Source of the DNA: Verrucomicrobiales bacterium | GTDB taxonomy: Bacteria; Verrucomicrobiota; Verrucomicrobiia; Limisphaerales; UBA9464 | Direction of reading: 5' to 3' | DNA: 64,000 nt | Assembly (NCBI GenBank): GCA_027483345.1 | Contig: JAIXUV010000080.1 | Span: 1,679-65,678, forward strand | Shown here: positions 1 to 54,560 of the stretch, piece after piece | Layout of the letters: every line of letters starts with the position of its first letter | Numbering within the stretch: the first letter of the stretch is position 1 | The notes under the pieces: generated by a model | Told to the model about the DNA's origin: nothing | What the model saw: only the letters and a program-made list of their open reading frames with translations | Database searches by the model: none | Position numbers and translations under genes: made by a program

Positions 1-17
1 GCGATCGGCGGATCGAT

Positions 18-1623: not shown

Positions 1624-1670
1624 CGGAAACCCTCCCGGTCCGAACACCTCGGAATCCAACCTGACGACCT

Positions 1671-1710
1671 GTCGCTGAAGGTCCAAACCGGCTGAAGCCG
1701 GGCCTCCATA
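1671..1710. repeat. 40-nt intergenic repeat, copy 1 (REP-like, contains hairpin ccggc-tgaa-gccgg)
   Basis: gtcgctgaaggtccaaaccggctgaagccgggcctccata matches 5298-5337 at 37/40 positions. Confidence 0.7.
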
Positions 1711-1719
1711 CTGCCGGGG

Positions 1720-3416: not shown

Positions 3417-3662
3417 GCACAGGAGTTCACGGTAGAGAGACGAACGTGGATGGAGGCCGTGGAATGCTCAACAGGAGATCACGTCGCGGAGGAAGTCCGC
3501 CGCCTCCAGCAATGCCCGCTTTCGGCCCTATGCAACGGTTTGCCTCCACCCTCCGGAACTACCTTTTCGCCCCCCGCCAATGGAGATCTCACTGACGGGT
3601 TCTTGAGGGCATCGCCGCTCGCGGAGTCGTTGAGTCGGACGGTTCCCGTCTGAATCCTTGGG

Positions 3663-20388: not shown

Positions 20389-21039
20389 ATGAATCCCAAC
20401 GAAGCAGAAATCTATCCCCTCGGGGGTTGCCTGGCGGTCGCGTGTTGTCTCCCTGAACCAATCAGTTCGCAGTTCACCCACGACCACATGGAAAGCCTCC
20501 GGAGGACGTCTCACCCATCAGAACCGACCACCCCCGGACGCTCTGGTGGACCGGAATCGCCACCCGAGCCGATTCCGGCATTGCTGAACGCGTTGCTAGA
20601 GCTGTGCCGGTCGGAAGTCCACGCTGGATTCAACCGAGTTGGGATTCTGTCACGATACACCTGTCGCGGCGGCGCGTTCGGACGGCTCCGCCTGGCCGAA
20701 GGCGACACGCCCGAACCTCAGCTTCCCGTCGTTTTGGTGTTCCTCCATGTGACGGGCTGTCTTCATGTCACCCATGAGATCGCGCCGGGCAATTCGAGAT
20801 CCGTTCGGATTCCGATTTTCCACGGAGCGGTGGTGGGGCTGCCGATGAACTACCCGCTGATGGTGTTTGAAGACATCAAACCGACCGAAGGCACGATCGG
20901 TTGTGGTGTATCGATTGCCGTCATGGCCGCCGACGTTGTAAGGGCTCGGAGAGGGCCGAAGGCGAGGCCCGGGATAACCGATGTCCGGCAACCTATCGCA
21001 ACCAATAAGGTGGCGAACACGCACGGAGGACAACCGTGA
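20389..21039 (+). CDS. hypothetical protein
   Basis: 216-aa ORF whose stop overlaps the GTG start of the next gene (GTGA). Confidence 0.45.
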   Translation: MNPNEAEIYPLGGCLAVACCLPEPISSQFTHDHMESLRRTSHPSEPTTPGRSGGPESPPEPIPALLNALLELCRSEVHAGFNRVGILSRYTCRGGAFGRLRLAEGDTPEPQLPVVLVFLHVTGCLHVTHEIAPGNSRSVRIPIFHGAVVGLPMNYPLMVFEDIKPTEGTIGCGVSIAVMAADVVRARRGPKARPGITDVRQPIATNKVANTHGGQP

Positions 21040-21830
21040 GCGACAAATCAAAGATTGAATGGACGGATGCGACGTGGAACCCGGTTCGGGGTTGCACGAA
21101 AATCAGCCCCGGCTGTGCCTACTGCTACGCCGAGAAGTTTGCGGAACGGTTCCGGGGCGTTCCTGGTAGTCACTTTGAACAGGGATTCGACCTCCGGCTG
21201 GTTCCCGAAAAGCTCGGCGAACCGCTCCGGTTCGCACAGCCCAAGCGCATCTTCGTAAACTCGATGAGCGACTTGTTCCATGTCGGCGTTTCCGACAATT
21301 ACATCGAACAAGTGACGCAGGTCATGGCAGCTAGTCCGTGGCACACCTATCAAGTCCTCACCAAACGCTCCGAGCGTATGCGGGACCTGCTCCTTGGGCG
21401 GCTGCGGTTTGCCGCCGGGCTGGCGCACATCTGGTGGGGCGTCAGCGTGGAGGACCGGCGCTTCGGCCTGCCGCGTGTGGACCACCTCCGGGAATCGGGC
21501 GCGGCAATGAAGTTCCTTTCGGTCGAACCCCTGCTCGAATACCTCGGGACAGTGGAATTCGCTGGGCTGGACTGGGTGATTATAGGCGGGGAAAGCGGTC
21601 CCGGTGCCCGCCCGATGCCGGCCGAGTGGGCTCGCCCGATTCGCGATCACTGCGTTCAGCGCGGGGTGCCGTTCTTCTTCAAGCAATGGGGTGGCGTCCG
21701 CAAGCACACGACCGGCCGCGTGATAGACGGCCGCACTTGGGATCAGTTTCCAGTCCGACCCAGCGTTGCGGTTCCGCCTTTGGCTCAGCGCCGGGAGTTG
21801 ATGACGCAACTTTCACTTCAATCCACTTAG
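21036..21830 (+). CDS. DUF5131 (phage Gp37/Gp68) family protein
   Basis: N-terminus SKIEWTDATWNPVRGCTKISPGCAYCYAE is the family signature. GGAGGA 5 nt upstream of the GTG. Confidence 0.8.
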   Translation: MSDKSKIEWTDATWNPVRGCTKISPGCAYCYAEKFAERFRGVPGSHFEQGFDLRLVPEKLGEPLRFAQPKRIFVNSMSDLFHVGVSDNYIEQVTQVMAASPWHTYQVLTKRSERMRDLLLGRLRFAAGLAHIWWGVSVEDRRFGLPRVDHLRESGAAMKFLSVEPLLEYLGTVEFAGLDWVIIGGESGPGARPMPAEWARPIRDHCVQRGVPFFFKQWGGVRKHTTGRVIDGRTWDQFPVRPSVAVPPLAQRRELMTQLSLQST

Positions 21831-22184: not shown

Positions 22185-23174
22185 ATGCCTGAACTCCAAC
22201 CAGAGGTAAGCAGCGACGTCCAACCCGTGCGTCTGAGTGAGCTGCCGAACCTCATCGAAGAGTTTTTCGGGCTGGGTTACAGGGACAATCGTCTTGGCTT
22301 CGGCGGGCTGTGGGCGGGTTCGGATATGGCCCGGCTGGGATTGGACCGGTCGGTGGACCGTGAAACGCTCGGGAACATCTTCAGTTTCCGCTGCCCGGCG
22401 GGCGACCAGCTTCCGCCTCGGGAATGGCGAGAGACAGACCCGGTCATCGCGCAACGCATCAACTTTACGGGCAATCCGCTCGTCTCAACCCTTTGGGGCC
22501 TGGGCGGGCGCAAAGAGTGCCTGGCGCTGATGGAGACGCGCCACCGAGCGATGGATCAGGCAATGAAGCTCCTTCAGCGTGTCGCCGTCCTCGAATCGGA
22601 ATCGAAGCACCCGCTCCTCCGCCGGGGATGTCTTTATGCGGCCTTCCTTTCCGGAGCTGCCCCGGACCAGACGCCGCGTCTGGAAACCAACATCCTGATT
22701 GCCCAGCAGTATCGGCTGCCGAACGGCAAGGCAGTGCATTTCCCGCTCACCTTGGCACCCTGGGCCGTGAGCGAACTGATCGCCCGTTCGGAATGGCGCA
22801 GACTGAGCGAAACATTGGGGACGTTTGGCCTGACAGAGCGCACCCAGGTCCCTGAGAATCTCTTTAGACCCCCTGCCCTGCGGGATTTACGGCCGTCGGA
22901 GCAGCCGCTGCCCGGAAGCGTTGCCGACCGCCGCCTAGCGGGTCCCGAGTTGATTGTGGCCTGGCGGAATCAGGCCGCCGCCAAGGGCTTCGGGCGGGAA
23001 CAGGTGAAGGCGCTGTTCGCCGCCGGTCAATTGCTGGGCAAAGTCGTCCGCTGGGAGCGAAACAACCTGGGCCCCGCGGGAGTCGAAGCAGCCTACCACG
23101 CCGTGGCCCGGACGGGTTCCCGACTTTCGACTGCCTCTCCGGAGAAGGATCACAGCCATGGACCATCACTCTGA
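22185..23174 (+). CDS. degenerate TrwC/MOBF relaxase-domain paralog (predicted catalytically dead)
   Basis: Block-wise similarity to the N-terminus of the relaxase at 54561-57020: GLWAGSDMARLGLDRSVDRETLGNIF vs GKWLGEGAKALGLSGDVGPQVYRNLM, and CLYAAFLSGAAPDQTPRLETNILIAQ vs LLWAAFEHGTSRNLDPQLHIHVVLVN. The His triad and N-terminal Tyr residues are absent. Confidence 0.45.
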   Translation: MPELQPEVSSDVQPVRLSELPNLIEEFFGLGYRDNRLGFGGLWAGSDMARLGLDRSVDRETLGNIFSFRCPAGDQLPPREWRETDPVIAQRINFTGNPLVSTLWGLGGRKECLALMETRHRAMDQAMKLLQRVAVLESESKHPLLRRGCLYAAFLSGAAPDQTPRLETNILIAQQYRLPNGKAVHFPLTLAPWAVSELIARSEWRRLSETLGTFGLTERTQVPENLFRPPALRDLRPSEQPLPGSVADRRLAGPELIVAWRNQAAAKGFGREQVKALFAAGQLLGKVVRWERNNLGPAGVEAAYHAVARTGSRLSTASPEKDHSHGPSL

Positions 23175-23302: not shown

Positions 23303-24613
23303 ATGAAGCTGCTGGCGGTGACGCCCCTCGGGCGAAACCGCGAAACATCACGCCTATGGATCGAGAGCCGACGGCTCGAAGCGTTGGGGTTTCCGCCCGG
23401 AATGCCCTTCTCCGTGGAGTCGAAGGCTGGGGAACTCCTGCTCAAGCCGGCCATTCTGGCAGAAAATCACGTCTCCAGCCGGCAAATAACCGGTGGACGC
23501 CGCCCGATCATCGACGTCGCCAATCAAGCCATCCTCCAGGGACTCGCGGAATATCCCGAACTCAAAATCACCGGCTGGTTCGAGCGCCTTCAAATCAGTC
23601 CTACCCGTCGGGCGGCAGCCATCCTGCGAAGCCGTCGCCTGACGCCCCCGTTCCGGGTGCTGGAAGTGTTTGCGGGCGGCGGAACCATGACGGCTGCCCT
23701 GACTGCCAACGACCACTTCGTGGTCCAAGGCGGCATCGAAATCGAACCGCGTTTCGCCGACGTCTGGCAGGCGGCCCACCCGGAAGCGGCGTTGATCCAG
23801 GCCGACATCCGAGCGGTGGAGGTCTCGGACTTGCCGCCCTTCGACATCTTGATTGGCGGCATTCCCTGCACCAGCCACTCGAACCTCGGACGGGCCAAAA
23901 AGGCTCTCGCGGGCAAACCCGAGCTGGGCGACACCGGCGATCTGTTCATCCCGGTGTTGTCGATGGTGCGCGACCGGATGCCTGCAGCCATCGTGTTCGA
24001 GAACGTGCCGTCCTTTGGCACCAGTCTCGCCGGGCAGTTGATCGTCACCCATCTCGAACGCCTCGGCTACCACGTCTTCACCACCGTCTTGAAACCCAAC
24101 GCCGAATGGAACGAAATCGAGGACCGGCAACGCTGGCTTCTGGTAGCCACGCTGGACCATCCATTTGAGCTCAAGGTACCCGGAATTCCAAACACCACCC
24201 CCGTATCTGCCTTCCTCGACCCATTGGACCCGGAGCGGGACGCCTCCGATGCGCGGCGAATTGCGGTCACCATTGCCGGACTCCGTCGCCACGCCGAGCG
24301 ACACCGGGAACTAGGGCATGGTTTCGGCTTCACCGTCCTCAATGGTTCCGAGATGCGGATTCCCGTAATCACGAAGAGCTACCACAAGATCAACTCAGGA
24401 CCTTTCGTTCAGACACCTTTCGGTCCACGCCTGCTGCGTCTGGTGGAGTTGGAGCGTATTCGAGAGCTTCCACTCACCACTTCGGATTCTTCAATAGGTG
24501 CAGAATTGATTGGCCAAGGAGTTCAACCAACAGTCTTCAAGGAACTGTTTCACCAGTTAAGTGCGACGCTTTCCACGACAGGGGCACCTGTTCACCTCAG
24601 GCTGGGCGGCTAA
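23303..24613 (+). CDS. dcm: DNA (cytosine-5)-methyltransferase, orphan, with an extra ~100-aa N-terminal domain
   Basis: Motif I VLEVFAGGGTM, motif IV GGIPCTSHS, motif VI VFENVPSF. AGGAGG 6 nt upstream of the ATG. No adjacent endonuclease gene. Confidence 0.85.
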   Translation: MKLLAVTPLGRNRETSRLWIESRRLEALGFPPGMPFSVESKAGELLLKPAILAENHVSSRQITGGRRPIIDVANQAILQGLAEYPELKITGWFERLQISPTRRAAAILRSRRLTPPFRVLEVFAGGGTMTAALTANDHFVVQGGIEIEPRFADVWQAAHPEAALIQADIRAVEVSDLPPFDILIGGIPCTSHSNLGRAKKALAGKPELGDTGDLFIPVLSMVRDRMPAAIVFENVPSFGTSLAGQLIVTHLERLGYHVFTTVLKPNAEWNEIEDRQRWLLVATLDHPFELKVPGIPNTTPVSAFLDPLDPERDASDARRIAVTIAGLRRHAERHRELGHGFGFTVLNGSEMRIPVITKSYHKINSGPFVQTPFGPRLLRLVELERIRELPLTTSDSSIGAELIGQGVQPTVFKELFHQLSATLSTTGAPVHLRLGG

Positions 24614-25145: not shown

Positions 25146-27419
25146 GTGAATCTGCAGGAATATCTCGGCTGTCTTGAGAGGCTCACCTTCGGGAAGCGAT
25201 TGCCGGGCGCGCTTTACGCGGCCCGGGAGGAAGGGAGTGATTTTGGCCCGGAGCTGAATCAACTGTTAGCGCAATTGGCGGTGGATTTTGAAGTGGGGCC
25301 GGAATTCAACCTGATCAAGTTCCGGACGGGGGAACTGAAGGTCTCGTTTCTGAGCTATCCAAACTTCATGGAGGATCCGCATCCGGCGCTCCGACATGCG
25401 GTCACAATTGATCTAGCCAGTGGCAAGGCGCGCCACACGGATTACGCGGACAATCTAAATCCGCCGATTCTACACCGAAAGGAAACTTTCCTGGCTCCAG
25501 AGCATCCGCGGCGCGCGGGGTTTGCCGCGTTGACCAAGGCCGAAGAGGCGGCGGGGCTCTACGAACACACGGCGACCATCGGCTTCAAGCTGAACTGGGA
25601 ACGACTACTTTGGGAGAAGGGAGTAGTGATCGAGGGGAACGGTCTCCGGAGGCTGGAGAGTTCATCACCGCATGTTGAGCCTGTCCTCGCTCAATCTGGA
25701 GAGGGAGACAGCGGGATTGCAAAGAAGGCAGGGACGATTCTGGTGGATCGGCACAAGACGGCGATGACGAGGTATGACCTTTCCAAGCCGGTGAAAACTC
25801 TGCTGGAGTATGGGATGCTGAACAAAGGCGCGACGTTCTTCGACTACGGGTGTGGGCAAGGGAGCGATGTGCGCGGCCTGCAGGGGCTTGGACACGACGC
25901 GGACGGATGGGACCCGGCGTACCGGCCATCGACGGTCAAGCGCCCCGCCGACATCGTAAACATGGGTTACGTGCTAAACGTAATCGAGGATCCGGTCGAA
26001 CGTCTTGAAGCACTGGTGGACGCGTTCCGGTACGCGCGGCGGCTCTTGGTCGTGTCCGGGCTGATCAACGAGACAGTTGATACCGCGACAGCACAGCAGT
26101 ACGGCGATGGGGTTCTGACGCGAGCAAACACATTTCAGAAGTACTTCGAACAGCAGGAGCTTCAGCAATACATCGAGGATGCGCTGAGTACTACGGCTGT
26201 ACCCGTATCATTGGGAATATTCTACGTGTTCCGTGATCCGGCGGAGCATCAGGACTTCATATCGGCACGGACGCGTCGGACCGTGGACTGGACTCAGATC
26301 AGCGCTCGGCTGGGATTGGGCGAACCCAGAACGATTTGGAAATCGCTGTTCGAAGCACACAAAGAGCTTCTGGACGGCTTCGGAAAAGTAACTTTGGAAC
26401 TGGGGCGAATTCCGAAGCCGTCAGAATACGAGCATCTGGCGCAGATTAACGAGCAACTTGGGTCGGCGAAACGGGCTCTGCGAGCATTCGTGCAAGGCGG
26501 CGGGGCTCAGGGCCTGAAGTGGAATGAAGTTCGGGCCCGGTTCGGAATTGGTCAACCGCCGAAGCCGCGTTGGGAAACCCTTTACGAGGTGAACCGGGAG
26601 CTACTGGATGCGTTCTGGAACTTGATATTGCATCTCGGTCGCTTGCCCCAGCCAGAGGAGTTTCCATCGACGGAGGAGTTGCGGGAGAAGATTGGCTCTC
26701 CGAAACAAGCGCTGAGGATGTTCATCCAAAAGGGCGGCGAAGAAGAAGTGAAGCGCTCGGCGGAGAGCCGGAGGCGGGATCTGCTAGTGTATGTGGCGCT
26801 TGCGAACCTGCGCAAGAAGGTGCCTTTCGGGCATTTGTCGCAAACACTGCGATGGGACATTCGCGAATTCTTCGGAAACTATACGCGTGCGTTGGAGAAA
26901 GGCATCGATCTGCTGTACGCGGCAGGCGACACGGGCGAAATCGAGCTCGCATGCGAGGAATTGAAGGTGGGATGGCAAGATGAGCAGGCGTTGTATCTGC
27001 ACCGAAGCTTGCTGGAAGATCTGCCACCGGTACTGCGGGCCTACGTTGGATGTGCAACAGCGCTGTTCGGTGACGTGTCGCAGGCGGATGTGGTCAAACT
27101 ACACAAGGCCTCGGGCAAAGCGACGTTTCTGGTGTACGACGATTTCGAGGGCAAGCCGCTGCCGGAATTGCAGCATCGCATCAAGGTGAACCTGCGAACA
27201 CGTTGGGTGCAGGTGTTCGACCACCGATCCGACGGTCAATTGCTCTATTTCAAGGAGCGGTTTGTGGGTCCAAAGCATCCACACCGACCTGAAATGGAAG
27301 CATTCAGCGAGAAAATGCGGAGGTTTGGGGTCACTGACACAACTCTAATGGGGCCCACGAAAACAAGGATCGCGCAAATGCTAGAGAATGCGCGGATCAA
27401 TCAACACTTGGAAACGTAG
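25146..27419 (+). CDS. DNA phosphorothioation-associated putative methyltransferase (TIGR04096-like) with a tandemly duplicated C-terminal module
   Basis: FFDYGCGQGSDVRGLQGLGHDADGWDP...VNMGYVLNVIEDPVERLEAL matches my memory of the dnd-associated MTase family. GTG start. Internal ~75-aa repeat at aa 381-455 and 458-533. Confidence 0.7.
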   Translation: MNLQEYLGCLERLTFGKRLPGALYAAREEGSDFGPELNQLLAQLAVDFEVGPEFNLIKFRTGELKVSFLSYPNFMEDPHPALRHAVTIDLASGKARHTDYADNLNPPILHRKETFLAPEHPRRAGFAALTKAEEAAGLYEHTATIGFKLNWERLLWEKGVVIEGNGLRRLESSSPHVEPVLAQSGEGDSGIAKKAGTILVDRHKTAMTRYDLSKPVKTLLEYGMLNKGATFFDYGCGQGSDVRGLQGLGHDADGWDPAYRPSTVKRPADIVNMGYVLNVIEDPVERLEALVDAFRYARRLLVVSGLINETVDTATAQQYGDGVLTRANTFQKYFEQQELQQYIEDALSTTAVPVSLGIFYVFRDPAEHQDFISARTRRTVDWTQISARLGLGEPRTIWKSLFEAHKELLDGFGKVTLELGRIPKPSEYEHLAQINEQLGSAKRALRAFVQGGGAQGLKWNEVRARFGIGQPPKPRWETLYEVNRELLDAFWNLILHLGRLPQPEEFPSTEELREKIGSPKQALRMFIQKGGEEEVKRSAESRRRDLLVYVALANLRKKVPFGHLSQTLRWDIREFFGNYTRALEKGIDLLYAAGDTGEIELACEELKVGWQDEQALYLHRSLLEDLPPVLRAYVGCATALFGDVSQADVVKLHKASGKATFLVYDDFEGKPLPELQHRIKVNLRTRWVQVFDHRSDGQLLYFKERFVGPKHPHRPEMEAFSEKMRRFGVTDTTLMGPTKTRIAQMLENARINQHLET

Positions 27420-27615: not shown

Positions 27616-29142
27616 CTATGGATTAATGTCGCGAAGCAGCATAGAAAAAAGCGCGGATGCCGCCACACTGTCTGGCTCCAGTTTTGATTCATCCACAAAC
27701 TTTTTCATAGCAAGAGCCGGGTGAACCAGGTTTCTCCATTCCCTTAGTGTATGATTTGGCTCAGGATACGCGCCTTTTATCTTCAGTTTTCTTGCAACAT
27801 TAATGAGATTAAACAGGCTCCACGTCAGTGGATCGGTTTCAATCTCGCGACCAAAGTTCGCCTTCTTTGTCGTATCTGATTCAGCCTTCGCCGCGTTTAC
27901 GGCGGTTTGCAGTTGGCCGGGATTCACACTTAAATGAAGATCTATGAGTAGAGCCTCCATAGCGGAGCCGAATCCAGTCAAAGCAAGCCTATAACTCTCG
28001 TTGCTGTGTGCTTTCACTGCACCGCCGTATGCTGAGAAGCATATCTCTCTCAAGTCCGGATTCTTCATGAAGGCCAGCGCGGTCTTTTCAATTGCGAAGA
28101 CCGATACCTTGCTTGGAGCGACGGTTGCAGCAACTGGAGGTACGAGTTGTGGGCTGGCCTTTGCGACCTGTTGGTAGAGTGAGTTGCGGAATATGAGTTT
28201 TGCATCCTGGCGCTTTGCGAGCCCAATCACTTGCAGAAACGTGTAATCGCTGTCCGCCGGTGCCACGTCAGTCGATCCTTGCTGAACCATCTGCGCGACC
28301 TTTTGGACCAGATTAGTATTCCCAACTATTTTGCTAAATATGCCTTCCAGGTGGGAGCCAATTGAATGCGGAAGGTTCTTTAGCGCTTCCGCGAACGCGA
28401 TCTCAATGGGGAGTTCGCTCTTGCGAAGCGTCTCCTGGAATACAGTTTGAAGAAGGTATGGTTGGCCATTCAAAACATCATGCGCCGCTTTGACGTGGTC
28501 AACCACCGACGGATTAACGGATCTGGCCAACTCGATCGCCTGTTCCAGCGTTATGTCATCAGTGTAAACAGTTTGGCAGACGTTAAATGGTGAATTCCTC
28601 TCATCCACGAGCGTCTCCGGACGGAATGTTCCTGAAAAAACGAAACGAATACGGGACGCGATCGAGTCGGTACTGGCGTCAGCTCTTAAACTCGAGATCT
28701 GACGAATCTGTCCATAGAAGGAGTTTCGATACTGAGGGTTCTCAATACTCCCGGCTTCATCAATGATGATTGCGACCGGTGCTGCTGCTGGCGGGAATGC
28801 CGCTTCCAACCATGCAGCCACTTCGCCCCGATCTTCTATCCTCGGCCGCGGTATGGCCCTCCGGATGTTGCGACCAATTTGGTCGGTGAAGCAGCGTAGC
28901 AAGTCTTCAAATGCTGGACAGGGAGGAAGTCCCTGCAGGTCCACAAGGGCTGCTGTAAATCCGGCCTCCCGTAATCTATTGTTCAGGCGGACAAGACCGG
29001 AACTCTTTCCGTGTTGGCGAGGCCCGAGCAACAGCACCCATCGTCCAGCTGTAATCTCTCCGAAGACCTTTTGTTCGAAGCCCCTTGGAATATAAGCAGC
29101 TGAATCAAGCGGCACGGCTCCTTGGTTGTAGAAATCGCTCAT
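27616..29142 (-). CDS. STAND/AAA_35-like P-loop NTPase with a C-terminal HEPN-like domain
   Basis: Walker A LLGPRQHGKSSGL, Walker B VAIIIDEAGSI, NGQPYLLQTV helix. C-terminal LREWRNLVHP (Rx6H). Last gene of the PT operon, with a 4-nt overlap to the upstream gene. Confidence 0.6.
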   Translation of the reverse strand: MSDFYNQGAVPLDSAAYIPRGFEQKVFGEITAGRWVLLLGPRQHGKSSGLVRLNNRLREAGFTAALVDLQGLPPCPAFEDLLRCFTDQIGRNIRRAIPRPRIEDRGEVAAWLEAAFPPAAAPVAIIIDEAGSIENPQYRNSFYGQIRQISSLRADASTDSIASRIRFVFSGTFRPETLVDERNSPFNVCQTVYTDDITLEQAIELARSVNPSVVDHVKAAHDVLNGQPYLLQTVFQETLRKSELPIEIAFAEALKNLPHSIGSHLEGIFSKIVGNTNLVQKVAQMVQQGSTDVAPADSDYTFLQVIGLAKRQDAKLIFRNSLYQQVAKASPQLVPPVAATVAPSKVSVFAIEKTALAFMKNPDLREICFSAYGGAVKAHSNESYRLALTGFGSAMEALLIDLHLSVNPGQLQTAVNAAKAESDTTKKANFGREIETDPLTWSLFNLINVARKLKIKGAYPEPNHTLREWRNLVHPALAMKKFVDESKLEPDSVAASALFSMLLRDINP

Positions 29143-31769
29143 TTGAGTTTGATGATGTATTGCTCGATTAGCTTTTCCACTGAACCGTAGAACTTTACAG
29201 CGTCAAGAAACCATTCGAGCCTCAACTTGTATCCGGATGCGTTAGAATCAGTGATTCCATACAGCTCGATCATCCGAAGGCCAGCCATAATGTCTGAATC
29301 GGGGCGCGGAATCTCTTTCGATTGCAGGTATTCGCGACAGGACTCCAAGGTTGTTCTGCCTGTTGCGATCAGCATTGTGAGAAGTCGCTCCAATGACGTA
29401 GATTGGCCCCAATAGGTCTCGAGGTAGTGTTCGGCGTATGAATAAGTATCCGCAATTTCGAGGAGGTCGCCAGAAGTCACGGAAGCTCGTGATGCGGGCG
29501 ACCTTTCATTAAGGAGCCCGACGAGACGATCGCCAAGTGTTTGCAATAATTGAGGGTGACCATTAGTCCGATTCCAAGCCACGGAGGCAAACTGATCTTT
29601 GTCGGCGATTGTAATCTGCATAGCCTGTAGGGGCTTCATAAGAAGCTGCTGTGCCGACGCTCGATCAATTTGTCGCAGCATGACGGGGGCGCAGAAATTC
29701 CAGTGGGGAGACTGAGGATCCCACACACGGCTTGAAATCATTCTTTCTCCCGAGAAAACAAATTGTGCTTCACCTTCTTGAGAGACAGTTCTACATGCTC
29801 TAAAGAATGCCTCTGGAACCTCTTCACTCGTGTGCTGTTTGTCCCAATCAAGCAGTTGATCAATTTCGTCAAGAAAGATGACCACTTTTGAACTCGTTGC
29901 TTTCTTAAGCTGCTTCACCAGATCAAACACATTTGCAGGACGAAATTGGTTGGTCGGCTTCACCTGCCAAGCCCTTTGAGCCATCGCAGCAAAATCAGTC
30001 CAATCGCGAACGGTCTGACAGTCGCCGAAGTAGGTCTCAAATCCGGCTTCGCGAAGCCTTGCGGCCGCATGTCGCATCAGAGACGTTTTTCCAATCTTGC
30101 GCCCGCCAAGGAGCGCAATGCTATTTGAAGCGAGCGTCGATACCATGTCGGCCTCTTCCTTTTCGCGACCGTAAAACATCCTTGTGGGCGTTACACTACT
30201 CACAACAAATGGACTGGCCTTCACCAGGTCCGATTGTTCGAGGGCTTGACGTGCCAATATTGCTAGCGGCGGCTCCTTAGATTGCGCAATGGTCAACAGG
30301 AGAGAGGCGTCGAGAACGATTACGCTGGATGTGAGAGATCTCTGCAAGAGCCTAAGTCCGGAAGCGGTTGAGACGTCAGGGGGCGTGGGACAAAGGAGGA
30401 CTGCGATTTTAGATTCAGGGTCTGTGGAAAGGGCGACGCCGGAGATTCTTTTGAATAAATCTGAATTCGCGACAAGCGAGGAAGCCGCGACCACAAGTCG
30501 TTTCGGCAATATATCGCCCCCATCTTTAAGACTCTCCACCGCATAGGTGATGCCATTGTGTTGAGCAATGACTGGCAAGCTGCCACCCGTAGCCATAAAG
30601 AAACACTCTATGGCCTTCTCCGATTGGAAGGCCTTGTTTAATCCGCTTGCCATAGTAACTAGTTCCTTCCTCCTCCAACCGAGGACGACTCCTGTTGGAT
30701 TTAGTGCCAAATCCAATTCTTTGTTCTCGTTCGCATAGGCGGCCAAGGCAATTCTGGCCTGATCGGGCTCATCGGGTAACTCCGTAGTTGAAATGCTTCC
30801 TTTCGAAGTGATTGCAGCGTGAATGAGTTCCTTCAAAGCCCGTCTTTTCCGAGTGGGTGGAGGCGCGGCCGCTAAGCGCAGCATTTCTTGCAGCAATTTT
30901 CCGGATGCGGCTTGTTGGAAGGTCATGCAGCTTGCCACACCAGACATTAGGCTTTGGAGAACAGAATCGCGCGCTCCGCGGACACCCCTACCATCAGCGA
31001 CAAGAATAAGGTTTAGACCATACTCCGCCAAATCTCGCTGCAAAGCTGGATATTCATTTGAGAGTTGAGTCTGCTGCCTTCCGCCGAGAGCTGTTTGAAA
31101 CAGGCTTGTGACTGCAATGCTTTGTCGCGAGCCCACAGCTAACACAGCCTCAACTTTGCCGCGGACGCCAGGAGCCCATTGAGCCTCGGGTTGGATTTCG
31201 ATGACTATATTGTGATTCTGATTGGCCTCAGCGATCGCTTGCTTTAGAACGCTCTGCAAACGTTCTTTAATTGTCGATCCCACACGATATCTTCGATGGC
31301 CTGCGTCCTGACTCAGAAGGGTTATTTTTACAAGGTCTTGAACACTCACTCCCGGTTTAACAATCCTCCCGAAACCCAAGTCAATCAGCAGGGAGGCAAT
31401 ATCTGAATAACGAGATGCCGGGGGTGGGCGGGTTGAATCTGGAAGTTCGCGTCCGTCGCCGAACCCGATTTCTCCCTGTGGAAGTGCCAAAAGAGCGACG
31501 GCCACTTGATACAGGTTTGAGTGTTCGCGGAGACCTTTTTCCAGCGCTTCCTTAGTAAGTACCGTTTCGGAAGTTAGTGATTGGAGAAAGCTTATCGCTC
31601 CTTGATAGCGGGACAAATTCCTTTCTATTTCGGGCCATCCGATATAAGTGCCGATGTCGAAAAGGTCGGGCGTTATCGACTTCCGCAGTTCCTCAATTTG
31701 TTGGGAATTGATCACACTATTTAGATTTGCGTTGAAATTAGGGTGCAGGCTTCGGTAACGCCCCGACAC
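29139..31769 (-). CDS. 876-aa protein: unknown ~530-aa N-terminal region plus a STAND-like P-loop NTPase (paralog of the 508-aa neighbour)
   Basis: Walker A LLGGRKIGKTSLMRH, Walker B VVIFLDEIDQLL, NGHPQLLQTL helix. The N-terminal half has no motif I recognise. 32-nt overlap with the cysteine desulfurase gene. Confidence 0.6.
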   Translation of the reverse strand: MSGRYRSLHPNFNANLNSVINSQQIEELRKSITPDLFDIGTYIGWPEIERNLSRYQGAISFLQSLTSETVLTKEALEKGLREHSNLYQVAVALLALPQGEIGFGDGRELPDSTRPPPASRYSDIASLLIDLGFGRIVKPGVSVQDLVKITLLSQDAGHRRYRVGSTIKERLQSVLKQAIAEANQNHNIVIEIQPEAQWAPGVRGKVEAVLAVGSRQSIAVTSLFQTALGGRQQTQLSNEYPALQRDLAEYGLNLILVADGRGVRGARDSVLQSLMSGVASCMTFQQAASGKLLQEMLRLAAAPPPTRKRRALKELIHAAITSKGSISTTELPDEPDQARIALAAYANENKELDLALNPTGVVLGWRRKELVTMASGLNKAFQSEKAIECFFMATGGSLPVIAQHNGITYAVESLKDGGDILPKRLVVAASSLVANSDLFKRISGVALSTDPESKIAVLLCPTPPDVSTASGLRLLQRSLTSSVIVLDASLLLTIAQSKEPPLAILARQALEQSDLVKASPFVVSSVTPTRMFYGREKEEADMVSTLASNSIALLGGRKIGKTSLMRHAAARLREAGFETYFGDCQTVRDWTDFAAMAQRAWQVKPTNQFRPANVFDLVKQLKKATSSKVVIFLDEIDQLLDWDKQHTSEEVPEAFFRACRTVSQEGEAQFVFSGERMISSRVWDPQSPHWNFCAPVMLRQIDRASAQQLLMKPLQAMQITIADKDQFASVAWNRTNGHPQLLQTLGDRLVGLLNERSPASRASVTSGDLLEIADTYSYAEHYLETYWGQSTSLERLLTMLIATGRTTLESCREYLQSKEIPRPDSDIMAGLRMIELYGITDSNASGYKLRLEWFLDAVKFYGSVEKLIEQYIIKLK

Positions 31770-32898
31770 TTGCGATCGCCTTTCTCGGGAGCGTCTGAAG
31801 CGCCTGCAAAAGGCGCGAAATATCTTCAGCAGTTGAGAATCGCGACAAGCTAACTCTCAATGCACTCAGAGCTATTTCGTGAGCAACATGCATCGCCATT
31901 AGCGTCTTTGATGGGTGAATAGCACCTGAAGAACAAGCTGCACCTGTCCCCACGAGTATTCCGGCGGAGCCAAGAATATCAACAGCATCTCCGGCAACGA
32001 TGCCAGGCAGTGAAAAGAATGTAGTGTTTGGTAGACGCGGGGCCCGAACAGAATGGATAATCACATCCGGGAATATATCTATTAACCGTTGTTCGAACTC
32101 GTTTCGCAAACTCTGAATGTGCTCAGACATGTCTGCGCGGGCTTCGTGTGCTGCCTGGGCCAACCCCGCAAGTCCAGCGGTATTGAGTGTTCCTGGCCTA
32201 AGGCCTTGCTGTTGTCCTCCGCCTAGCATCATCGGGGCGATGTCGATTCCGGGGCGCACATAAATCCCTCCCACCCCCTTTGGTGCGTGACATTTATGAC
32301 CTGAGAATGAAAGCAGGTCAATATCGTGCCATTTACCCTGTAAATCTATGGCGTTCTTTCCTACCGCCTGGGTGGCATCTGTGTGGAAAAGCGCGGCTGG
32401 ACATCGCTCGCGGATGATTCGGCCAATTTCCTGAATTGGCTGAAGAACTCCTGTCTCGTTATTTGCGGCGATTACCGAAACGAAGAGTGTGTCGTCTCGC
32501 AGCGCATTGCTAAGAGCATCCAATCGGATAACACCATCTTGATCCACCGGCACTTCGATCAGGTCCAGACCACCTTTGGCTAACTCACGCGCAGGCTCGG
32601 TGATCGAGGGGTGTTCAATTGCCGAAATGATAACTCGCCCCGTTCCCTTCCCCCTGCAGGACGACATCAAGACCCAGTTGTTTGACTCTGTTGCGCCGGA
32701 CGTAAAAGCGAAGCAATTCGGCTCCTCGGCGTTCAATAAGTGTGCCAACGCTCTCGCGGCATCCACTCTTGGTTTGTCTGCTCCTGTAAATGGCGCGGAT
32801 GAGGCGTTGAAATAGCAATCCCCTAAATACGGCAAAACCGCATCAATTACCGTTTGTGACGGCCGAGTCGTAGCGTTGTTGTCGAGATAAATCAGCAT
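31738..32898 (-). CDS. class-V aminotransferase / cysteine desulfurase (SspA/DndA/IscS-like)
   Basis: MLIYLDNNATTRP start, PLP-lysine motif SFSGHKCHAPKG, 386 aa. Confidence 0.9.
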   Translation of the reverse strand: MLIYLDNNATTRPSQTVIDAVLPYLGDCYFNASSAPFTGADKPRVDAARALAHLLNAEEPNCFAFTSGATESNNWVLMSSCRGKGTGRVIISAIEHPSITEPARELAKGGLDLIEVPVDQDGVIRLDALSNALRDDTLFVSVIAANNETGVLQPIQEIGRIIRERCPAALFHTDATQAVGKNAIDLQGKWHDIDLLSFSGHKCHAPKGVGGIYVRPGIDIAPMMLGGGQQQGLRPGTLNTAGLAGLAQAAHEARADMSEHIQSLRNEFEQRLIDIFPDVIIHSVRAPRLPNTTFFSLPGIVAGDAVDILGSAGILVGTGAACSSGAIHPSKTLMAMHVAHEIALSALRVSLSRFSTAEDISRLLQALQTLPRKAIASVGALPKPAP

Positions 32899-32904: not shown

Positions 32905-33840
32905 TTATTCTCGAGCTGGGGCGAGGAACACTTGTTCCGTGTGCCATTTTGTGTAGTCAACCTTTGGCATGTAGCTATCCCGATTTGGTTTCAACAAAGG
33001 CTTTTTGTGGAAACGTCCAAGATTTTCCACGAACCCTTCCGATCCATACGCCTTCTCTGAAATCAATACACATCCCGCTTGATTAATTGTAAACGCCCCA
33101 CGGTCAAACAGCTTGTGGTGCAAAGAACATAGTGCAAGACCGTTTTCGCGAATGTCCGGTCCTGCTGCTTGATGCCATTTAATGTGAGCGGCTTCCAGTG
33201 CAATTGGAACATGTCCGATCCGAACATTAAATCCGCAAACGGCGCAGCGATACTCATAAGCAGACAAAACCATTTCCCTGAACTCCGGATCGCGGTTGTT
33301 GCTTCGTTGCATGCCACTTGGAATTACCAAGCCCAAGGAGAGCAGTATATCCTCATGCAATGTCTCCGGGAAATGAGATTGCAGCAGTGTGTCAATAACC
33401 TTCGCGCGCAATTCATCGTTCTGCCTTAGTTCATTGTAGACGTCTTCTTGAAATCCTCCCTGTGCTTTCGAGGAGAGGAGCGCGCGGCGTGAGGGATAAC
33501 CATTCCCGGGTCTCAGAGTCGACAATGCGGAACGGACTTCCCAGATGCCCTTCTCGCTTTGCAAGGCCCAAAACGGGTATTCCGGATGACATACTTTGCG
33601 TGGCGGGCCAAACTCCGTAAGCAGCCGACGAAGGGGATTCTGGATCTTGTCAAATGGAACTAGTCGCTGGTTCTCGGTGAAAAGCTCTGAGATTGCCAGC
33701 AGGCATAATAGAGGCTTGTGAGGGGCACGTTGGCCAGCTTTGCGCCAAACGGAAAGGGAGCGAAAGCGATGCGCAACATCTTCCTCTTTCAAGAGAGACG
33801 AAACTTCAAGGGTAGGACGTTGTCGCGCTTGGTTACGCAT
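32905..33840 (-). CDS. SBD-HNH endonuclease (ScoMcrA-type phosphorothioate-DNA-binding domain plus HNH)
   Basis: N-terminal RAPHKPLLCLLAISEL and HPEYPFWAL (Y-P-x-x-A sulfur-pocket motif). C-terminal HNH CAVCGF...LEAAHIKWH...NGLALCSLHHKLFD. Start set at the ATG at 33840, which overlaps the dptH-like stop (ATGCGTAA). Confidence 0.7.
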   Translation of the reverse strand: MRNQARQRPTLEVSSLLKEEDVAHRFRSLSVWRKAGQRAPHKPLLCLLAISELFTENQRLVPFDKIQNPLRRLLTEFGPPRKVCHPEYPFWALQSEKGIWEVRSALSTLRPGNGYPSRRALLSSKAQGGFQEDVYNELRQNDELRAKVIDTLLQSHFPETLHEDILLSLGLVIPSGMQRSNNRDPEFREMVLSAYEYRCAVCGFNVRIGHVPIALEAAHIKWHQAAGPDIRENGLALCSLHHKLFDRGAFTINQAGCVLISEKAYGSEGFVENLGRFHKKPLLKPNRDSYMPKVDYTKWHTEQVFLAPARE

Positions 33841-36800
33841 CGGTTTTGCTCGCGGGCCTTCCGTGTTGCAGACGTATGAGGCGCACAATCTGAGGAACCG
33901 TGGTTTCGATATCAATAAAGGGCACTTGGGCGAAGATCGGATCAGCCGCATCTCCCGTCTTGGCGAGCATGTGACCTCGTCCGAGCAACCTCTCCGCACC
34001 TGAGTTCTTGCTCCCCATGGCGATCTCCGCGGTTCCAGCATTATCGACCTTGAGGATTAGCCGGTTCCCGAGCTGGGAACGGAGTTGCATCGGCATCACG
34101 TCCTTGTCCGGTCTCTGGGCGGCGAATAGCAGAAAAATTCCGGCGGCTCGCGCCTTCACACTCAGGCGTCCGACGATGTTGGGTACCGAGTCTTTGTAGT
34201 CCTCGGTCTGCATCCAGTCAGCGAACTCGTCGTGGATGATCCAGAGTGTCGGCAGCGGCTTGCCAGTCGCGCGACGGTAGCCGTGGATGTTGGCGACTTT
34301 GGCCTGCTTGAAGAGTTCGTAGCGCGCATTCATCTCCTCGACTAGTCCTCCGAGGACCTGCACAGCCGTTGCGGGATCATCAATGATGCCACCTGAACCG
34401 ACTTCCACGTGTGGTAACTCGTCGAGCGGACGGTAATCCACACCATACTTCGGGTCGATGAGGTAAATATGCGCCTCCTCCGGTGAGCGGGTAGCGGCGA
34501 TGCTCAAGATGAGGTTTTGCATCAGCACGGATTTTCCGCTTCCCGTGATCCCCGCGATGAGAGTGTGGGGTTGGTTGAGCGGGTCCAGTAACAATGGTTT
34601 GCCATCCTCTTCGCGGATACCGACGCATAGCTTTTCGCCAAGCATACCCTCGCTGTAGCTACGAAGATAGGCGAGGAGCACGGGTTCTGTGTGCAGGACT
34701 TGCCGATTCGGACGCTCCACGGCGATGGAAACTCGTCCCGATTCGGGAGTGGTGTTGATGATCTTGATTCCATCAGACGTGTATATTTCATCCACGCGTG
34801 ACTCCACCGCTTGAACGGTGAGATCCTTTGATCCCTGCAACTTAATGATGCCGGCATTGGGGGTAAGAATCGGCGCCAGACCTTCGATAAGCTTGGCGGG
34901 AAGTCCTCGTGTGACTAACGCCTGCCGGAGTTGCACAGTAGTCGCCTCAAGCCATGACCGGCCTTCTTCTTCCGTGCTCTGAAACATCGCTGCGCGCGAT
35001 TCGAGCAAGGCAATCAGTGGTGCCGACGATGCACGGGCAGTGCTGCCATGCGTTGCGCTGGAATCGGCGACTTGCTTCTCAACCGAACCGGGGACTTGCA
35101 CACCTGACGCCGCGCTCGGAGGCGTGACTAGCGCGGGCGGTTCCGGGTTAAGCGCTGCACCGGATTCACCCTGCGTGTCATCGGGCGGATTCTTTTGTTC
35201 ACTCTTCTTTGACGGTGCCTTGCCCTCAGCCTTGCTGGCCAAGTGGTAGAGCTTTGATTTTCCGAACGCAGGATGGCCATTGCGCAGACGTAGCTCGGCG
35301 GTCGCCTTGTGGTTGGCGTCGTGATAGTGAATCAGGAGTTCGCGAACATGCCCTGGCCCGAAAGTCTCCTGAAGCGAATCGAGGCCAGCCCTTCCTTTTC
35401 CAGCTGGGATTCCCTTAACCGTGGAAACTTGCGCAGTGAGATCGTGCGGCTCGTTCACGAAGACATGGGAGTATCCCCAAATGCGGACGGTGCATTGACG
35501 CTGCCGGATCGCTCGACGCCAAGCAACGGTATCCAAGGGCGGCTGACCGGGCGCGACGACTGTTTGGGAAACAAGAAGGTCAGACAGTCGAGCCAGCCAG
35601 ATGTCTTGGTCGATGGTGCGAGCCTCCCCGTCCATCGCCTCGGTCAACTGAGAGAGTGTGTCCATCAGTTGCTTGGCCGAAGTGCTTGCCGCTCCACCTA
35701 GCGCGTCATGCGTGACGAACTTCGCCTCCGTCACCACAACGTCGAGGTGCTTGGAGCCGTCGGCATTCGTCTTCGGTGCGAGCACGAGCAGATCAGCGAT
35801 GTTAGCCCCTTCTTTCTTGCCTAGCCATTGGCTGTAATCGTCAAGAAAGCACCAAGCGATTGGTCGACCCGCGCCCAACTCCGATTGGACGAGGTAGCGA
35901 GAGAGCACCATGCCGAGTAGCTCGTTGGTGTTGTTCGCTCGGCGGGCTGCCTTGAGAACGAGGCCGCCAGAAATCTTGTTGGCATCCTCCATGAAATGCT
36001 TGCAGAGACGGTCGATGACATCCACAGGTGTATCCGAGGCCAACAACGCCTTAAGCTTCTCCTTGAGCGTGTTCACCAGCAGAGTCTCGCGGGCATCCGA
36101 GGAAATGATCAGGTTCCGTCCGTGCGTCGCGGACTGGACGTAGCGAATGACTTTAACGTGTTGTGCCTCCAAAAGCTTTCGGTCGAGCAGTTCGTCCTGA
36201 TTTACCACCCAATTCGCAAGTTCGTGTGTCTCCCGGAAAATGCGCTCAACCCTCTGATCGTCGAAGTCGAGACACCGCATGAGCACGGGACACTTGCCAA
36301 CCACCCATGCATCATCTGCGCCGGGCGCGCACAGGACTGCAAGGGAGTAGAGGTAAGCCCATCCGGTTTCCGTCTGAGCGGGGCAGGCGAGTTGGAGGCG
36401 GACTTTCCTATCGCCCTCACTCACCGGAAGGCGACGGCTCCATTGGTGAGGTTGGAGTTCTTGCGGAGTAGCGGTCTCCCTCGAGAGCCACTCCCAAACG
36501 GGTTTCGCCTCACGGGAAATCAAATCGCGGCAGTATGCAATATCAACCGGCTGCGAACGGCCTTCGCGGCGCAATCGGTTGGCCGCGGTGATGTTCACGC
36601 GGACCTTGGCGAGGAAATCACCGGAGGCTTCTGTCGGATCCGCCTCGGTATCCACGCCTCGCGCCACAAGATCGCGATAAATCTGCCGCAAGTGATCTTC
36701 ATCCCGATGCATGAGCAGCACCTGGCAGGTGATCTTGTCATCCTCCCGTTTCGCATTGATGCGGTTGATACTCTCGACTACCGCGGTCGGTAGATCTGGA

Positions 36801-42686: not shown

Positions 42687-42699
42687 AGCTATGGTGGTA

Positions 42700-43551
42700 T
42701 CAGAGTTGGCAGAGCAGGCATCCTTCGCGCCGCCGTGGCGCTGCTTCGAGACCACCAAGAGTCTGAGCCAGCGAACGGTTCGGCTGGCGTTTTGCAAGCC
42801 GTTCTTGAGTCTTGCGCCAATTCTCTTCGATTTGAGTCATACGAGTGGGTTGCTCCAGGTCTGCGAGTGACTCGTCGCCGCACCAGTAAAACACATTGCC
42901 ATTCACGCGGTTTGGCTTCTCGTAAGCCTTGGCCTGCTCGTAGTATTCCGGGTAGCGCTGCTTCAGGCGAACCCACTCGATCTTCTGCTGGTAAAAGCAA
43001 AAGAAGCAGCCGCTTCGAGTGCGCCCCCACTCTGTGTAGGGAGGCATACCGAGACCCGAATTTTCAAGGATTCGCTGAACGCCCTCGTAGTCAATCCCGT
43101 CTTCTCGAAACGGAAATGCCGCACGAATGTTTGGCTTGTGACTGATGTAACCGACCCGCTCCTCATCCGCTCGAATGCCTACGTAGTTAATGCAAAAGCC
43201 GCTACCAATATAATCCTCAAAGGGCTTTAGTTTCATCAACTCGGTGCACCATCTCCGATGACTGGAGGGGAGCATCCCACCTTTCATGCGCAGCAAATGA
43301 TCAAACGTAGTTCCGAAAGTCGTTCGGACGATCTTGCGGCCCAGATACCCTTCCAAGCGCTCTAGATATTCGTAGGTGTCTGGGAGTTCCTTCGCAGTAT
43401 CATGGAAGATGTATTCCATGTTCGTCACACGATCGCGTAGATAGACTGCGAGCGCCGCGCTGTCCTTGCCTCCGGAAAGACTCAAGACATGACGAACCAT
43501 GGCGGGGTCTTCCGGCCATTTATTGTCCCGAACGAGAGCTTGAGTCGTCAT
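42700..43551 (-). CDS. sspD: PAPS-reductase/PP-loop ATP pyrophosphatase, short form (SspD-like rather than DndC-like)
   Basis: PP-loop VLSLSGGKDSAALAVYL, C-terminal cysteine motif GCFFCFYQ. At 283 aa it is much shorter than the ~500-aa size I recall for DndC. Confidence 0.75.
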   Translation of the reverse strand: MTTQALVRDNKWPEDPAMVRHVLSLSGGKDSAALAVYLRDRVTNMEYIFHDTAKELPDTYEYLERLEGYLGRKIVRTTFGTTFDHLLRMKGGMLPSSHRRWCTELMKLKPFEDYIGSGFCINYVGIRADEERVGYISHKPNIRAAFPFREDGIDYEGVQRILENSGLGMPPYTEWGRTRSGCFFCFYQQKIEWVRLKQRYPEYYEQAKAYEKPNRVNGNVFYWCGDESLADLEQPTRMTQIEENWRKTQERLAKRQPNRSLAQTLGGLEAAPRRREGCLLCQL

Positions 43552-43554
43552 GTG

Positions 43555-46926: not shown

Positions 46927-46947
46927 GTCTGTCGTGACGGGGTGCGA

Positions 46948-54510: not shown

Positions 54511-54560
54511 GACTAGGCCGTCAGCGGGGTACCGTCGGGGTTGACGGGAGTTATCCGTGC

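Follow-up and report, generated by a model that had tools for sequence, protein, structure and literature searches.

The 64,000-nucleotide stretch of a Verrucomicrobiales bacterium analysed here (contig JAIXUV010000080.1 of assembly GCA_027483345.1, positions 1,679 to 65,678), hereafter called the window, carries an operon of ssp genes for DNA phosphorothioation (PT), and at the tail of this operon lie two adjoining genes that encode P-loop nucleoside triphosphatases (NTPases) of 876 and 508 amino acids (aa), which we call A and B, respectively. A reading of this DNA made from its letters alone (the sequence-only reading) had described the two proteins as a paralogous STAND-like pair coupled to a cysteine desulfurase, and had proposed either an independent Avs-like module welded into the operon or a new PT-coupled effector layer. 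We report here that A and B form a strict, always-paired dyad found mostly away from PT genes, and we interpret this dyad as a candidate defence cassette. The pair and its immediate surroundings comprise the following features, where residue numbers for A refer to the longest open reading frame (ORF):

29139 to 31769, minus strand: gene A, 876 aa as the longest ORF, GTG start; from N to C terminus, a DpnII-like domain, a winged helix-turn-helix (wHTH)-like segment, an alpha/beta domain without a family, a STAND/ORC-like NTPase and a C-terminal helical/winged-helix region.
30870 to 31706, minus strand: DpnII-family restriction-endonuclease (REase) fold of A (aa 22-300), with an N-terminal helical part and a PD-(D/E)XK-type core.
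30675 to 30851, minus strand: winged-helix-like segment of A (aa 307-365), helix-strand-helix-strand-strand, from AlphaFold2 (AF2) secondary structure only, with a predicted local distance difference test (pLDDT) score of 65-89.
30234 to 30572, minus strand: conserved alpha/beta domain of A without a known family (aa 400-512), from the AF2 model and relatives.
29490 to 30182, minus strand: NTPase module of A (aa 530-760), with FYGRE lead-in, Walker A, Walker B and GHP motif.
27616 to 29142, minus strand: gene B, 508 aa, ATG start; AAA_35 NTPase, winged helix and HEPN domain.
28153 to 29142, minus strand: AAA_35 NTPase module of B (aa 1-330), with Walker A, Walker B and GQP motif.
27619 to 28080, minus strand: predicted DUF4145-like HEPN domain of B (aa 355-508), all-helical.
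27718 to 27744, minus strand: Rx6H motif of B (R467-E-W-R-N-L-V-H474-P), the predicted RNase active site.
31738 to 32898, minus strand: sspA/dndA-type cysteine desulfurase gene, directly upstream of A (PADLOC, 342 bits).
32905 to 33840, minus strand: PT-DNA-binding HNH restriction endonuclease gene (SBD-HNH; NCBIfam NF045808, 328 bits); the longest ORF reaches 34041.
33833 to 47904, minus strand: sspB, sspC, sspD, sspF, sspG and sspH, the head of the operon (PADLOC).
25146 to 27419, plus strand, convergent: gene for a [quoted passage not shown] (TIGR04096; NCBIfam, 615 bits).

Both ORFs are present on the minus strand as first described, and all of the motifs quoted in the sequence-only reading were located where it had placed them, namely LLGGRKIGKTSLMRH at aa 553, VVIFLDEIDQLL at aa 629 and NGHPQLLQTL at aa 736 of A, and LLGPRQHGKSSGL at aa 38, VAIIIDEAGSI at aa 123, NGQPYLLQTV at aa 225 and LREWRNLVHP at aa 466 of B. 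The 4-nt overlap between the two genes is likewise present, with the stop codon of A and the start codon of B sharing ATGA. An overlap of 32 nt claimed between A and sspA depends on the choice of the longest ORF; because all eleven of eleven close homologues of A begin approximately 18 codons 3' of that start, and a GTG at 31715 fits them (giving an 858-aa A and a 22-nt spacer from the sspA stop at 31738), this GTG is probably the true start and the overlap an artefact. A and B are real genes, each with many homologues: an exhaustive phmmer search of 1.84 billion cluster representatives with aa 1-530 of A retrieved 121 relatives (E≤1e-3), and the full-length homologues of B number more than 263.

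The cysteine desulfurase that adjoins the pair is of the SspA/DndA type; with SspB-H, sspA and SBD-HNH upstream and the TIGR04096 methyltransferase downstream, the pair therefore sits within a PT island. The TIGR04096 protein shows three matched stretches as well as a weak HNH_repeat match. While the longest ORF of SBD-HNH overlaps sspH (33833-39289) by 209 nt, its ATG at 33840 gives an overlap of 8 nt. A promoter and terminator scan of the 27-34.5 kb interval yielded no more sites than were found in shuffled sequence.

To define how A and B are distributed, one genome per species was scanned with a profile of A and a profile of B, and metagenome contigs were added. The A-profile scan yielded 17 loci and the B-profile scan 22, with A directly followed by B in every one, as was also the case in all metagenome contigs examined; altogether, 32 distinct loci including the window were obtained, and the order A then B holds in all 31 others. 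These loci come from an Opitutae metagenome-assembled genome, Acidobacteriota, Alpha-, Beta- and Gammaproteobacteria, Hymenobacter (Bacteroidota), and Actinomycetota/Solirubrobacterales. In 16 of 23 loci the B start lies at -4, -8 or -1 nt from the A stop, and 6 loci have a gap of +12 to +27 nt; for the other three (L009, L011 and L037), no usable distance follows from the longest-ORF start of B. Between loci, the identity of A tracks that of B (pairwise r=0.96), and partners have therefore not been shuffled. No conserved third gene stands beside the pair among the loci compared. A and B thus are a strict, co-inherited dyad in which neither gene was found without the other. Searches by tblastn found no full-length match to A in 72,556 plasmids, with weak matches confined to the ATPase part (identity 24-27%, query coverage 26-37%), and no match to B in 50,697 phages. 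The copy on the Hymenobacter qilianensis chromosome (L029, 7419-11524) shows a clear sign of recent horizontal acquisition, as the G+C content at third codon positions (GC3) of its A and B is 0.28 and 0.23, respectively, in a locus of 49% GC.

With regard to protein A, the N-terminal region of about 530 aa, in which the sequence-only reading recognised no motif, contains a DpnII-family REase fold at aa ~22-302, although with a degenerate active site. PF04556 scores 20.5 bits on aa 28-287 of A itself, under the Pfam cut-off of 23, and two full-length relatives (P0132 and P0134) score above this cut-off. Most phmmer matches to aa 1-530 are proteins of about 860 aa with the same architecture; other matches, of about 290 aa, align to aa 22-300 only. 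Among the latter standalone proteins, seven score 109-173 bits on PF04556, with P0193 at only 23.1, and most of those scanned are, by these profile scores, bona fide DpnII-family enzymes. An hhalign comparison of the A family with the canonical standalone enzymes gave a probability of 99.9% and an E value of 6e-31 over 277 columns, and the homology therefore spans the entire restriction enzyme.

The active site was compared between 63 members of the fused family and 12 canonical DpnII-family enzymes. The canonical enzymes show D, E, N and K in 12 of 12 each, in the pattern VDF ... A-V-E-x-N-F-Y ... G-S-K-P. By contrast, at position 221 of the fused family Glu is found in none of the 63 members (A, V, T or S stand instead; T221 in A of the window); at position 223, the six commonest residues (V35, L8, T6, I4, A3 and R2; L223 in the window) cover 58 of the 63 and do not include Asn; and at position 231 Lys occurs in 0/63 and Arg in 56/63 (R231 in the window). 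Other positions are well kept, with an acidic residue at 207 in 44/63, Q or E at 225 in 55/63, and D259 in 62/63, and the fused family has a near-invariant pattern of its own, F-Q-[TA]-x-x-G-G-R-Q-Q ... A-D-G, which takes the form FQTxxGGRQQ ... ADGRG in the window. This comparison suggests that the DpnII-like domain has probably lost canonical catalysis and now serves as a DNA-binding reader. As no conserved third gene was found among the loci compared, no cognate methyltransferase accompanies A; C5 methyltransferases near the pair in 4 loci adjoin their own XamI or HNH enzymes. Classification of A as an active-type DpnII enzyme was rejected on both grounds, i.e., canonical Glu and Lys in 0/63 and lack of a cognate methyltransferase. 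A PDB search with the canonical DpnII profile found no structure of the family.

The middle of A (aa 300-530) has no Pfam match. Some relatives of approximately 780-860 aa share only this middle region and the NTPase with A and have a different N terminus; the alternative N termini of five of them (P0217, P0227, P0229, P0234 and P0237) likewise gave no Pfam match. The NTPase module has the Walker A motif GGRKIGKTS (K561), the Walker B motif FLDEID (D634, E635) and a GHP motif (G737-P739), and K561, T562, D634, E635 and G737-H-P739 are invariant across homologues. Pfam matches on aa 530-756 are AAA_22 (37.5 bits), ATPase_2 and nSTAND1 (27.5 bits, marginal against a cut-off of 27.1). The module is followed by no more than about 115 aa.

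Protein B begins with its NTPase module, in which the Walker A motif GPRQHGKS (K46), the Walker B motif IIDEA (D128, E129) and the GQP motif (G226-P228) were identified; G45, K46, D128, E129 and G226-x-P228 are invariant across B homologues, and AAA_35 scores 77.9 bits on aa 6-325 against a cut-off of 27. The AF2 model of B is confident (pLDDT 92.5) and shows a strand hairpin at aa 309-318 after helices, where secondary structure is the only basis for assigning a winged helix. The C-terminal part (aa 361-508; pLDDT 82-97) consists almost wholly of helices, the exceptions being one loop around aa 420-442 and two isolated bridge residues. Invariant in this part are R385, G392, E396, R467, R470, N471, H474 and P475, with R467, R470, N471 and H474 invariant in 45 sequences and a polar E following R467. 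A profile of this C terminus reached a family of 283-aa proteins in a 5.8-billion-sequence database (E ~1e-5), and hhalign joined the two families at 97.5% (E 5e-12) with the common motif L-R-x-[WF]-R-N-x-x-H-P; 24 of 34 members of the 283-aa family in turn match DUF4145 (PF13643), with P0262 above the curated cut-off. Through this chain from B to the 283-aa family to the DUF4145 profile, the proposal of a HEPN domain with an Rx6H motif finds support at profile level, transitively for the most part, and the C-terminal domain of B is a predicted RNase of DUF4145-like HEPN type. DUF4145 is a HEPN family, and catalytic Arg-His spacers of up to six residues are documented (PMC3710099); it is also the catalytic RNase of the defence protein RAZR (PMC13017515). 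The 283-aa family itself (P0260-P0345) is widespread and combines a DUF4145-type HEPN domain, with the LRxFRNxxHP motif that it has in common with B, with a conserved N-terminal domain that gave one weak AbiJ_NTD3 match; it may represent an AbiJ-like single-gene system.

The description of A and B as paralogous stands at profile level, where hhalign aligned aa 534-824 of A with aa 19-314 of B (97.3%, E 2e-11, 270 columns, 21% identity), and does not stand for BLASTP, which detects the P-loop only; by profile comparison the two NTPases are distant STAND/ORC-like paralogues. Assignment of both proteins to the STAND/ORC-like P-loop NTPases is borne out by Pfam (nSTAND1, ATPase_2 and AAA_35) and by Foldseek, which placed the archaeal ATPases 2fna and 2qen, ORC/Cdc6 and Avs3/Avs4 nearest to both and also matched DnaA and MuB. 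STAND features that are present include an intact Walker A (GxxxxGK[ST]) and Walker B (hhhhDE), a curated profile above cut-off, and the GxP motif; Pfam detected no repeat-array sensor (TPR, WD40 or LRR) in either protein. Neither PADLOC 2.0 nor NCBIfam has a family model for A or B, and PADLOC gave only weak P-loop-level matches on A (PDC-S27 and PDC-S01, ≤21.6 bits) and none on B. Membership in Avs was rejected, given the lack of a match to any PADLOC Avs model, the lack of a TPR-type sensor and the two-protein organisation. The statement that the pair is not among the published PT modules agrees with the finding that no PADLOC Ssp or Dnd model matches A or B, and Ssp/Dnd membership was also rejected, as these models match eight neighbouring genes and neither member of the pair. 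Literature searches (AAA_35/PF14516, phosphorothioate with DpnII and STAND, nSTAND, and DUF4145 anti-phage) found no description of the dyad, within incomplete coverage.

While most of the architecture is constant, the C terminus of B is exchanged among loci. A PNP_UDP_1 nucleoside-phosphorylase domain (59 bits) replaces HEPN in L021 (12324-14303); B of L045 (9489-10763, a gene that is possibly split) carries an alpha/beta-hydrolase-like domain with a hydrophobic C-terminal tail; and in L042 (11077-12105) and L043 (10001-11026) B stops after the NTPase module without an effector domain, with A of L043 also carrying a different N-terminal domain. Such swapping of a terminal, toxin-type domain while the NTPase chassis is conserved is what effectors of conflict systems usually show. 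Neighbours of the pair elsewhere include C5 methyltransferases with XamI or with HNH, type I HsdR, SNF2 with an N6-methyltransferase, AbiE, PIN, integrases and relaxases. One copy, in L005, is adjoined (2-3497, minus strand) by genes for a trypsin-nSTAND1-WD40 protein and Trypco1, which make up a ternary conflict system like those reported by Kaur et al., and the pair therefore sits in defence islands. When 117 neighbouring ORFs were pooled and compared with PADLOC, no family matched more than four of them, and the 25 families listed were all of C5-methyltransferase type and redundant.

Linkage to Ssp genes within 10 kb was found in 7 of the 32 loci (the window, L001, L002, L024, L025 and the contigs of P0003 and P0006), all within a clade whose A proteins share at least 56% identity with that of the window; A is 56-91% identical among the seven. 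The other 25 loci have neither Ssp genes nor a cysteine desulfurase within 10 kb, and they include L005, L007 and L049 (A 52% identical in each), L050 (47%) and all those at about 35-40%. As far as distribution is concerned, the pair is thus widespread without PT genes, which is one half of the outcome that the sequence-only reading had named as refuting its proposal; with linkage limited to one clade, the idea of a general PT-coupled effector layer is not supported. Regarding an independent Avs-like module welded into the operon, independence is upheld by the dyad in 31 of 31 other loci; the Avs-like part holds as an analogy only.

Six of the seven Ssp-linked loci share the order sspH-(SBD-HNH)-sspA-A-B, with genes overlapping or close-set; in the seventh, the pair is divergent from sspB, with no sspA in between. 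PT genes flank the pair on both sides in the window, L024 and L025, with a dnd-related methyltransferase downstream. When the window was compared with L001, L002 and L025, identities were 71-76% for SspF, SspG and SspH, 56-57% for A, 55-64% for B and 42-45% for SspA. GC3 in the window is 0.50-0.53 for SBD-HNH, sspA, A and B, 0.60-0.66 for sspB-H and 0.67 for the downstream methyltransferase, and the drop for sspA-A-B is repeated in L001, L002, L024 and L025, the four other Ssp-linked loci for which DNA sequence was available. Given this low GC3, the tail block seems to be a unit that was acquired, or has been evolving, separately, with sspA apparently travelling with the pair.

The SBD-HNH gene shares an operon with the PT writers sspBCD and sspA, and its product (NF045808) would target the DNA of its own host unless it and the Ssp mark differ in sequence or strand specificity. 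The gene is found in the window and the P0003 contig, is reduced in L024 to its first ~107 codons (87% identical) before sspA, and is absent from L001, L002 and L025.

The Ssp island with the pair is cargo of a conjugative or mobilisable element. Genes for a TrwC relaxase and a TrwB coupling protein likewise adjoin the L001 copy, and no tRNA gene was found in the window. Features of this kind in the window are as follows:

52861 to 57020, minus strand: TrwB-type coupling protein and TrwC relaxase-helicase.
22185 to 23174, plus strand: TrwC-like fragment.
21036 to 21830, plus strand: DUF5131 gene.

The window further encodes, at 11257-16188 on the plus strand, a 1643-aa fusion of an S-adenosylmethionine (SAM)-methyltransferase domain (aa ~190-260) and an SNF2/ResIII helicase (aa ~820-1360); conjugative elements carry fusions of this kind. 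A C5 cytosine DNA methyltransferase gene without an obvious cognate endonuclease (23303-24613, plus strand) lies 0.5 kb upstream of the TIGR04096 gene, and both are convergent with the ssp operon.

The reading that we favour, with moderate confidence, is that A and B constitute an autonomous two-gene NTP-switch module directed against phages or mobile genetic elements, which in this lineage became joined, along with sspA, to the 3' end of an SspBCD-SspFGH operon carried by a conjugative element. Direct support comes from the domain identities, the obligate pairing with its stop/start overlap, co-inheritance, domain swapping in B, the defence and mobile-element context, and the Ssp linkage in one clade. 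Beyond this, we infer an A-B hetero-oligomer, a DNA trigger, RNase activity and abortive infection as the outcome. A would act as sensor or scaffold, with its DpnII-derived domain and winged-helix-like segment reading DNA and its STAND/ORC-like NTPase turning this input into nucleotide-dependent assembly; B would be the effector carrier, whose homologous NTPase module would co-assemble with A and so juxtapose the C-terminal HEPN domains as the dimer needed for an RNase site, consistent with the dimerisation that a HEPN active site needs (PMC13017515). The HEPN domain would then cut RNA (tRNA, rRNA or mRNA), and the infected cell would stop growing. As part of the Ssp operon, the cassette would most likely provide a further layer next to PT restriction, either independent of it or as a back-up, and is best read as neither a PT reader nor a PT-specific layer; a back-up, suicidal role has likewise been suggested for HEPN nucleases that border Dnd loci (PMC10853773), and PrrC-EcoprrI is a known case of this kind (PMC3710099).

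Several observations weigh against this interpretation of an autonomous module. The synteny of sspA, kept over 57% divergence, could reflect functional coupling. The loss of DpnII catalysis is deduced from the alignment by itself, and the conserved Q/E225 and D259 could form an alternative active site. Matches taken directly from the C terminus of B to PF13643 are weak (4 of 34 members, best E 0.036), and the AF2 model of A, which was built from 12 input sequences, is mediocre (mean pLDDT 71.7, predicted template modelling score 0.36). Foldseek queries were full-length models and returned only the NTPase module for both proteins, so that the DpnII and HEPN folds are assigned from profiles and not by comparing structures; searches of PDB sequences with A, B and profiles of the B C terminus and of canonical DpnII gave nothing useful. 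Large repeat sensors, which are typical of STAND immune receptors, are absent from both proteins. Finally, with B lacking an effector in L042 and L043, some versions of the system must work differently.

Among other explanations, we regard as unlikely, though not negligible, a functional tie between the pair and Ssp within the Ssp-linked clade, in which either the degenerate DpnII/wHTH module of A reads PT status or unmodified DNA, or A and B monitor the integrity of the Ssp machinery and free the HEPN RNase once a phage has shut down PT restriction. The seven loci that keep the pair beside Ssp (A 56-91% identical), six of them in the order sspH-(SBD-HNH)-sspA-A-B, argue for such a tie, as do the position of the pair between PT genes on both sides in the window, L024 and L025 and the distinct GC3 of sspA, A and B in all Ssp-linked loci tested; precedents exist in HEPN nucleases at Dnd edges (PMC10853773) and in PrrC, which monitors EcoprrI (PMC3710099). 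Against it, 25 of the 32 loci, spread over Acidobacteriota, Proteobacteria, Bacteroidota and Actinomycetota, lack any SspA-H homologue or cysteine desulfurase at ≤10 kb, the conserved motifs of A show no residue pattern that sets the Ssp-linked clade apart, no PADLOC family recurs in more than four of the 117 neighbouring ORFs, and the linkage may be plain inheritance of one island borne on an integrative and conjugative element. It is doubtful, to a somewhat greater degree, that sspA-A-B forms a functional unit in which the pair guards the PT system as a PrrC-like second line for a backbone modification. In such a unit, a dead DpnII-like reader, or contact with Ssp, would sense loss of PT or inhibition of SspFGH by a phage and unleash the HEPN RNase, with sensor and executor forming a dyad in the manner of paired NLRs.

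We consider it improbable that the pair is an NTP-dependent restriction enzyme, in which the DpnII-like domain of A would be active with a shifted site (D/E207, Q/E225, R231 and D259) and, like the nucleases of Avs1-4 or McrBC, gated by the NTPase, while B would be an accessory or second effector. PD-(D/E)XK enzymes with E-x-Q or migrated residues do exist (e.g., BglII and BamHI) and make such a shift conceivable; homology over the whole DpnII fold, conservation of D259 (62/63), acidic 207 (44/63) and Q/E225 (55/63), the effector-less B of L042 and L043, for which A may supply one, and replacement of the N-terminal domain of A in some relatives, as often happens to effector domains, point the same way. 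Set against these are the absence of the canonical invariant E, N and K from the 63 fused members (for N, from the tally of the six commonest residues) and the lack of a Dam-type cognate methyltransferase with the pair, as nearby C5 methyltransferases have REases of their own. A non-defence role as an ORC/Cdc6- or TniB-like pair for replication, partition or transposition of the carrier element, which Foldseek matches to ORC/Cdc6, DnaA and MuB, a weak TniB match in one relative and the frequent presence of integrases, relaxases or D5 primase at the loci might suggest, is very improbable, as the C terminus of B is of toxin type and exchanged for other toxin-type domains (HEPN, PNP and hydrolase), no integrase, transposase or origin-type gene is constantly linked, and plasmids (72,556) and phages (50,697) gave no full-length match to A and no match to B, respectively.

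Compared with known systems, the pair resembles Avs1-5 in coupling a STAND-type P-loop NTPase to a nuclease-type effector, in an NTPase fold that matches Avs3 (8dgc) and Avs4 (8dgf), in swappable effector domains and in oligomerisation-dependent activation as the expected logic. In Avs, one protein joins an effector, a STAND module and a TPR-like sensor for phage terminase or portal. The pair, unlike Avs, consists of two polypeptides with two NTPases, has no TPR-like C-terminal sensor and carries its effector at the C terminus of B, and the REase-like domain of A lacks canonical catalytic residues. PrrC-EcoprrI and RloC are like B in joining an N-terminal NTPase to a C-terminal HEPN RNase, and the window supplies a modification-operon context, PrrC being embedded in a DNA-modification/restriction operon as a second line of defence (PMC3710099). 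However, the NTPase of PrrC and RloC is ABC/Rad50-like, while that of B is STAND/ORC-like (AAA_35) and has an obligate partner in A, and the pair is linked to a modification system in one clade only.

RAZR, in which a zinc finger is joined to a DUF4145 HEPN RNase with essential Arg and His, and which causes abortive infection upon activation by higher-order assembly (PMC13017515), is like B in its DUF4145-type HEPN domain, a likeness that is transitive and at family level; unlike B, it is a single small protein without an NTPase and is activated by phage ring proteins (PMC13017515). DpnII/MboI enzymes (PF04556) align with aa 24-302 of A over their whole length, including the helical "DpnII/MboI-NTD", which has been reported fused to DUF4145 HEPN domains (PMC3710099); A differs from them in its replaced invariant Glu, Asn and Lys, the lack of a cognate methyltransferase and the NTPase fusion. 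Finally, neighbourhoods of an Orc/Cdc6-ATPase, an inactive REase and a wHTH have been described with HerA/FtsK "capture systems" (PMC10853773). A shares with these an ORC/Cdc6-STAND-type ATPase, an apparently inactive REase, a wHTH and a mobile defence setting, and the window pair sits beside SspH, the end of which is a HerA/FtsK ATPase. In capture systems, however, the inactive REase lies between the ATPase core and the wHTH, with HerA/FtsK as the core partner (PMC10853773), whereas A has an N-terminal DpnII-type REase-like domain and a second NTPase with HEPN as its partner, and HerA/FtsK is absent from most loci of the pair.

Overall, we regard the pair as an unnamed candidate two-component STAND-like/HEPN defence cassette, Avs-like and PrrC-like in its working and a member of neither. 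If validated, it would add to the catalogue of bacterial immunity a two-component STAND-like system that extends across Verrucomicrobiota-like bacteria, Acidobacteriota, Proteobacteria, Bacteroidota and Actinomycetota, in which a restriction-enzyme fold on one NTPase has seemingly been turned from cutter to reader while a paralogous NTPase bears an exchangeable toxin (HEPN, nucleoside phosphorylase or hydrolase). This arrangement recalls the sensor/helper NLR pairs of plants, for which it would be a tractable bacterial model. For PT biology, the finding mostly warns against taking every gene at the tail of an ssp operon for a PT component; the travelling of sspA with the pair in one lineage is nonetheless still of interest there.

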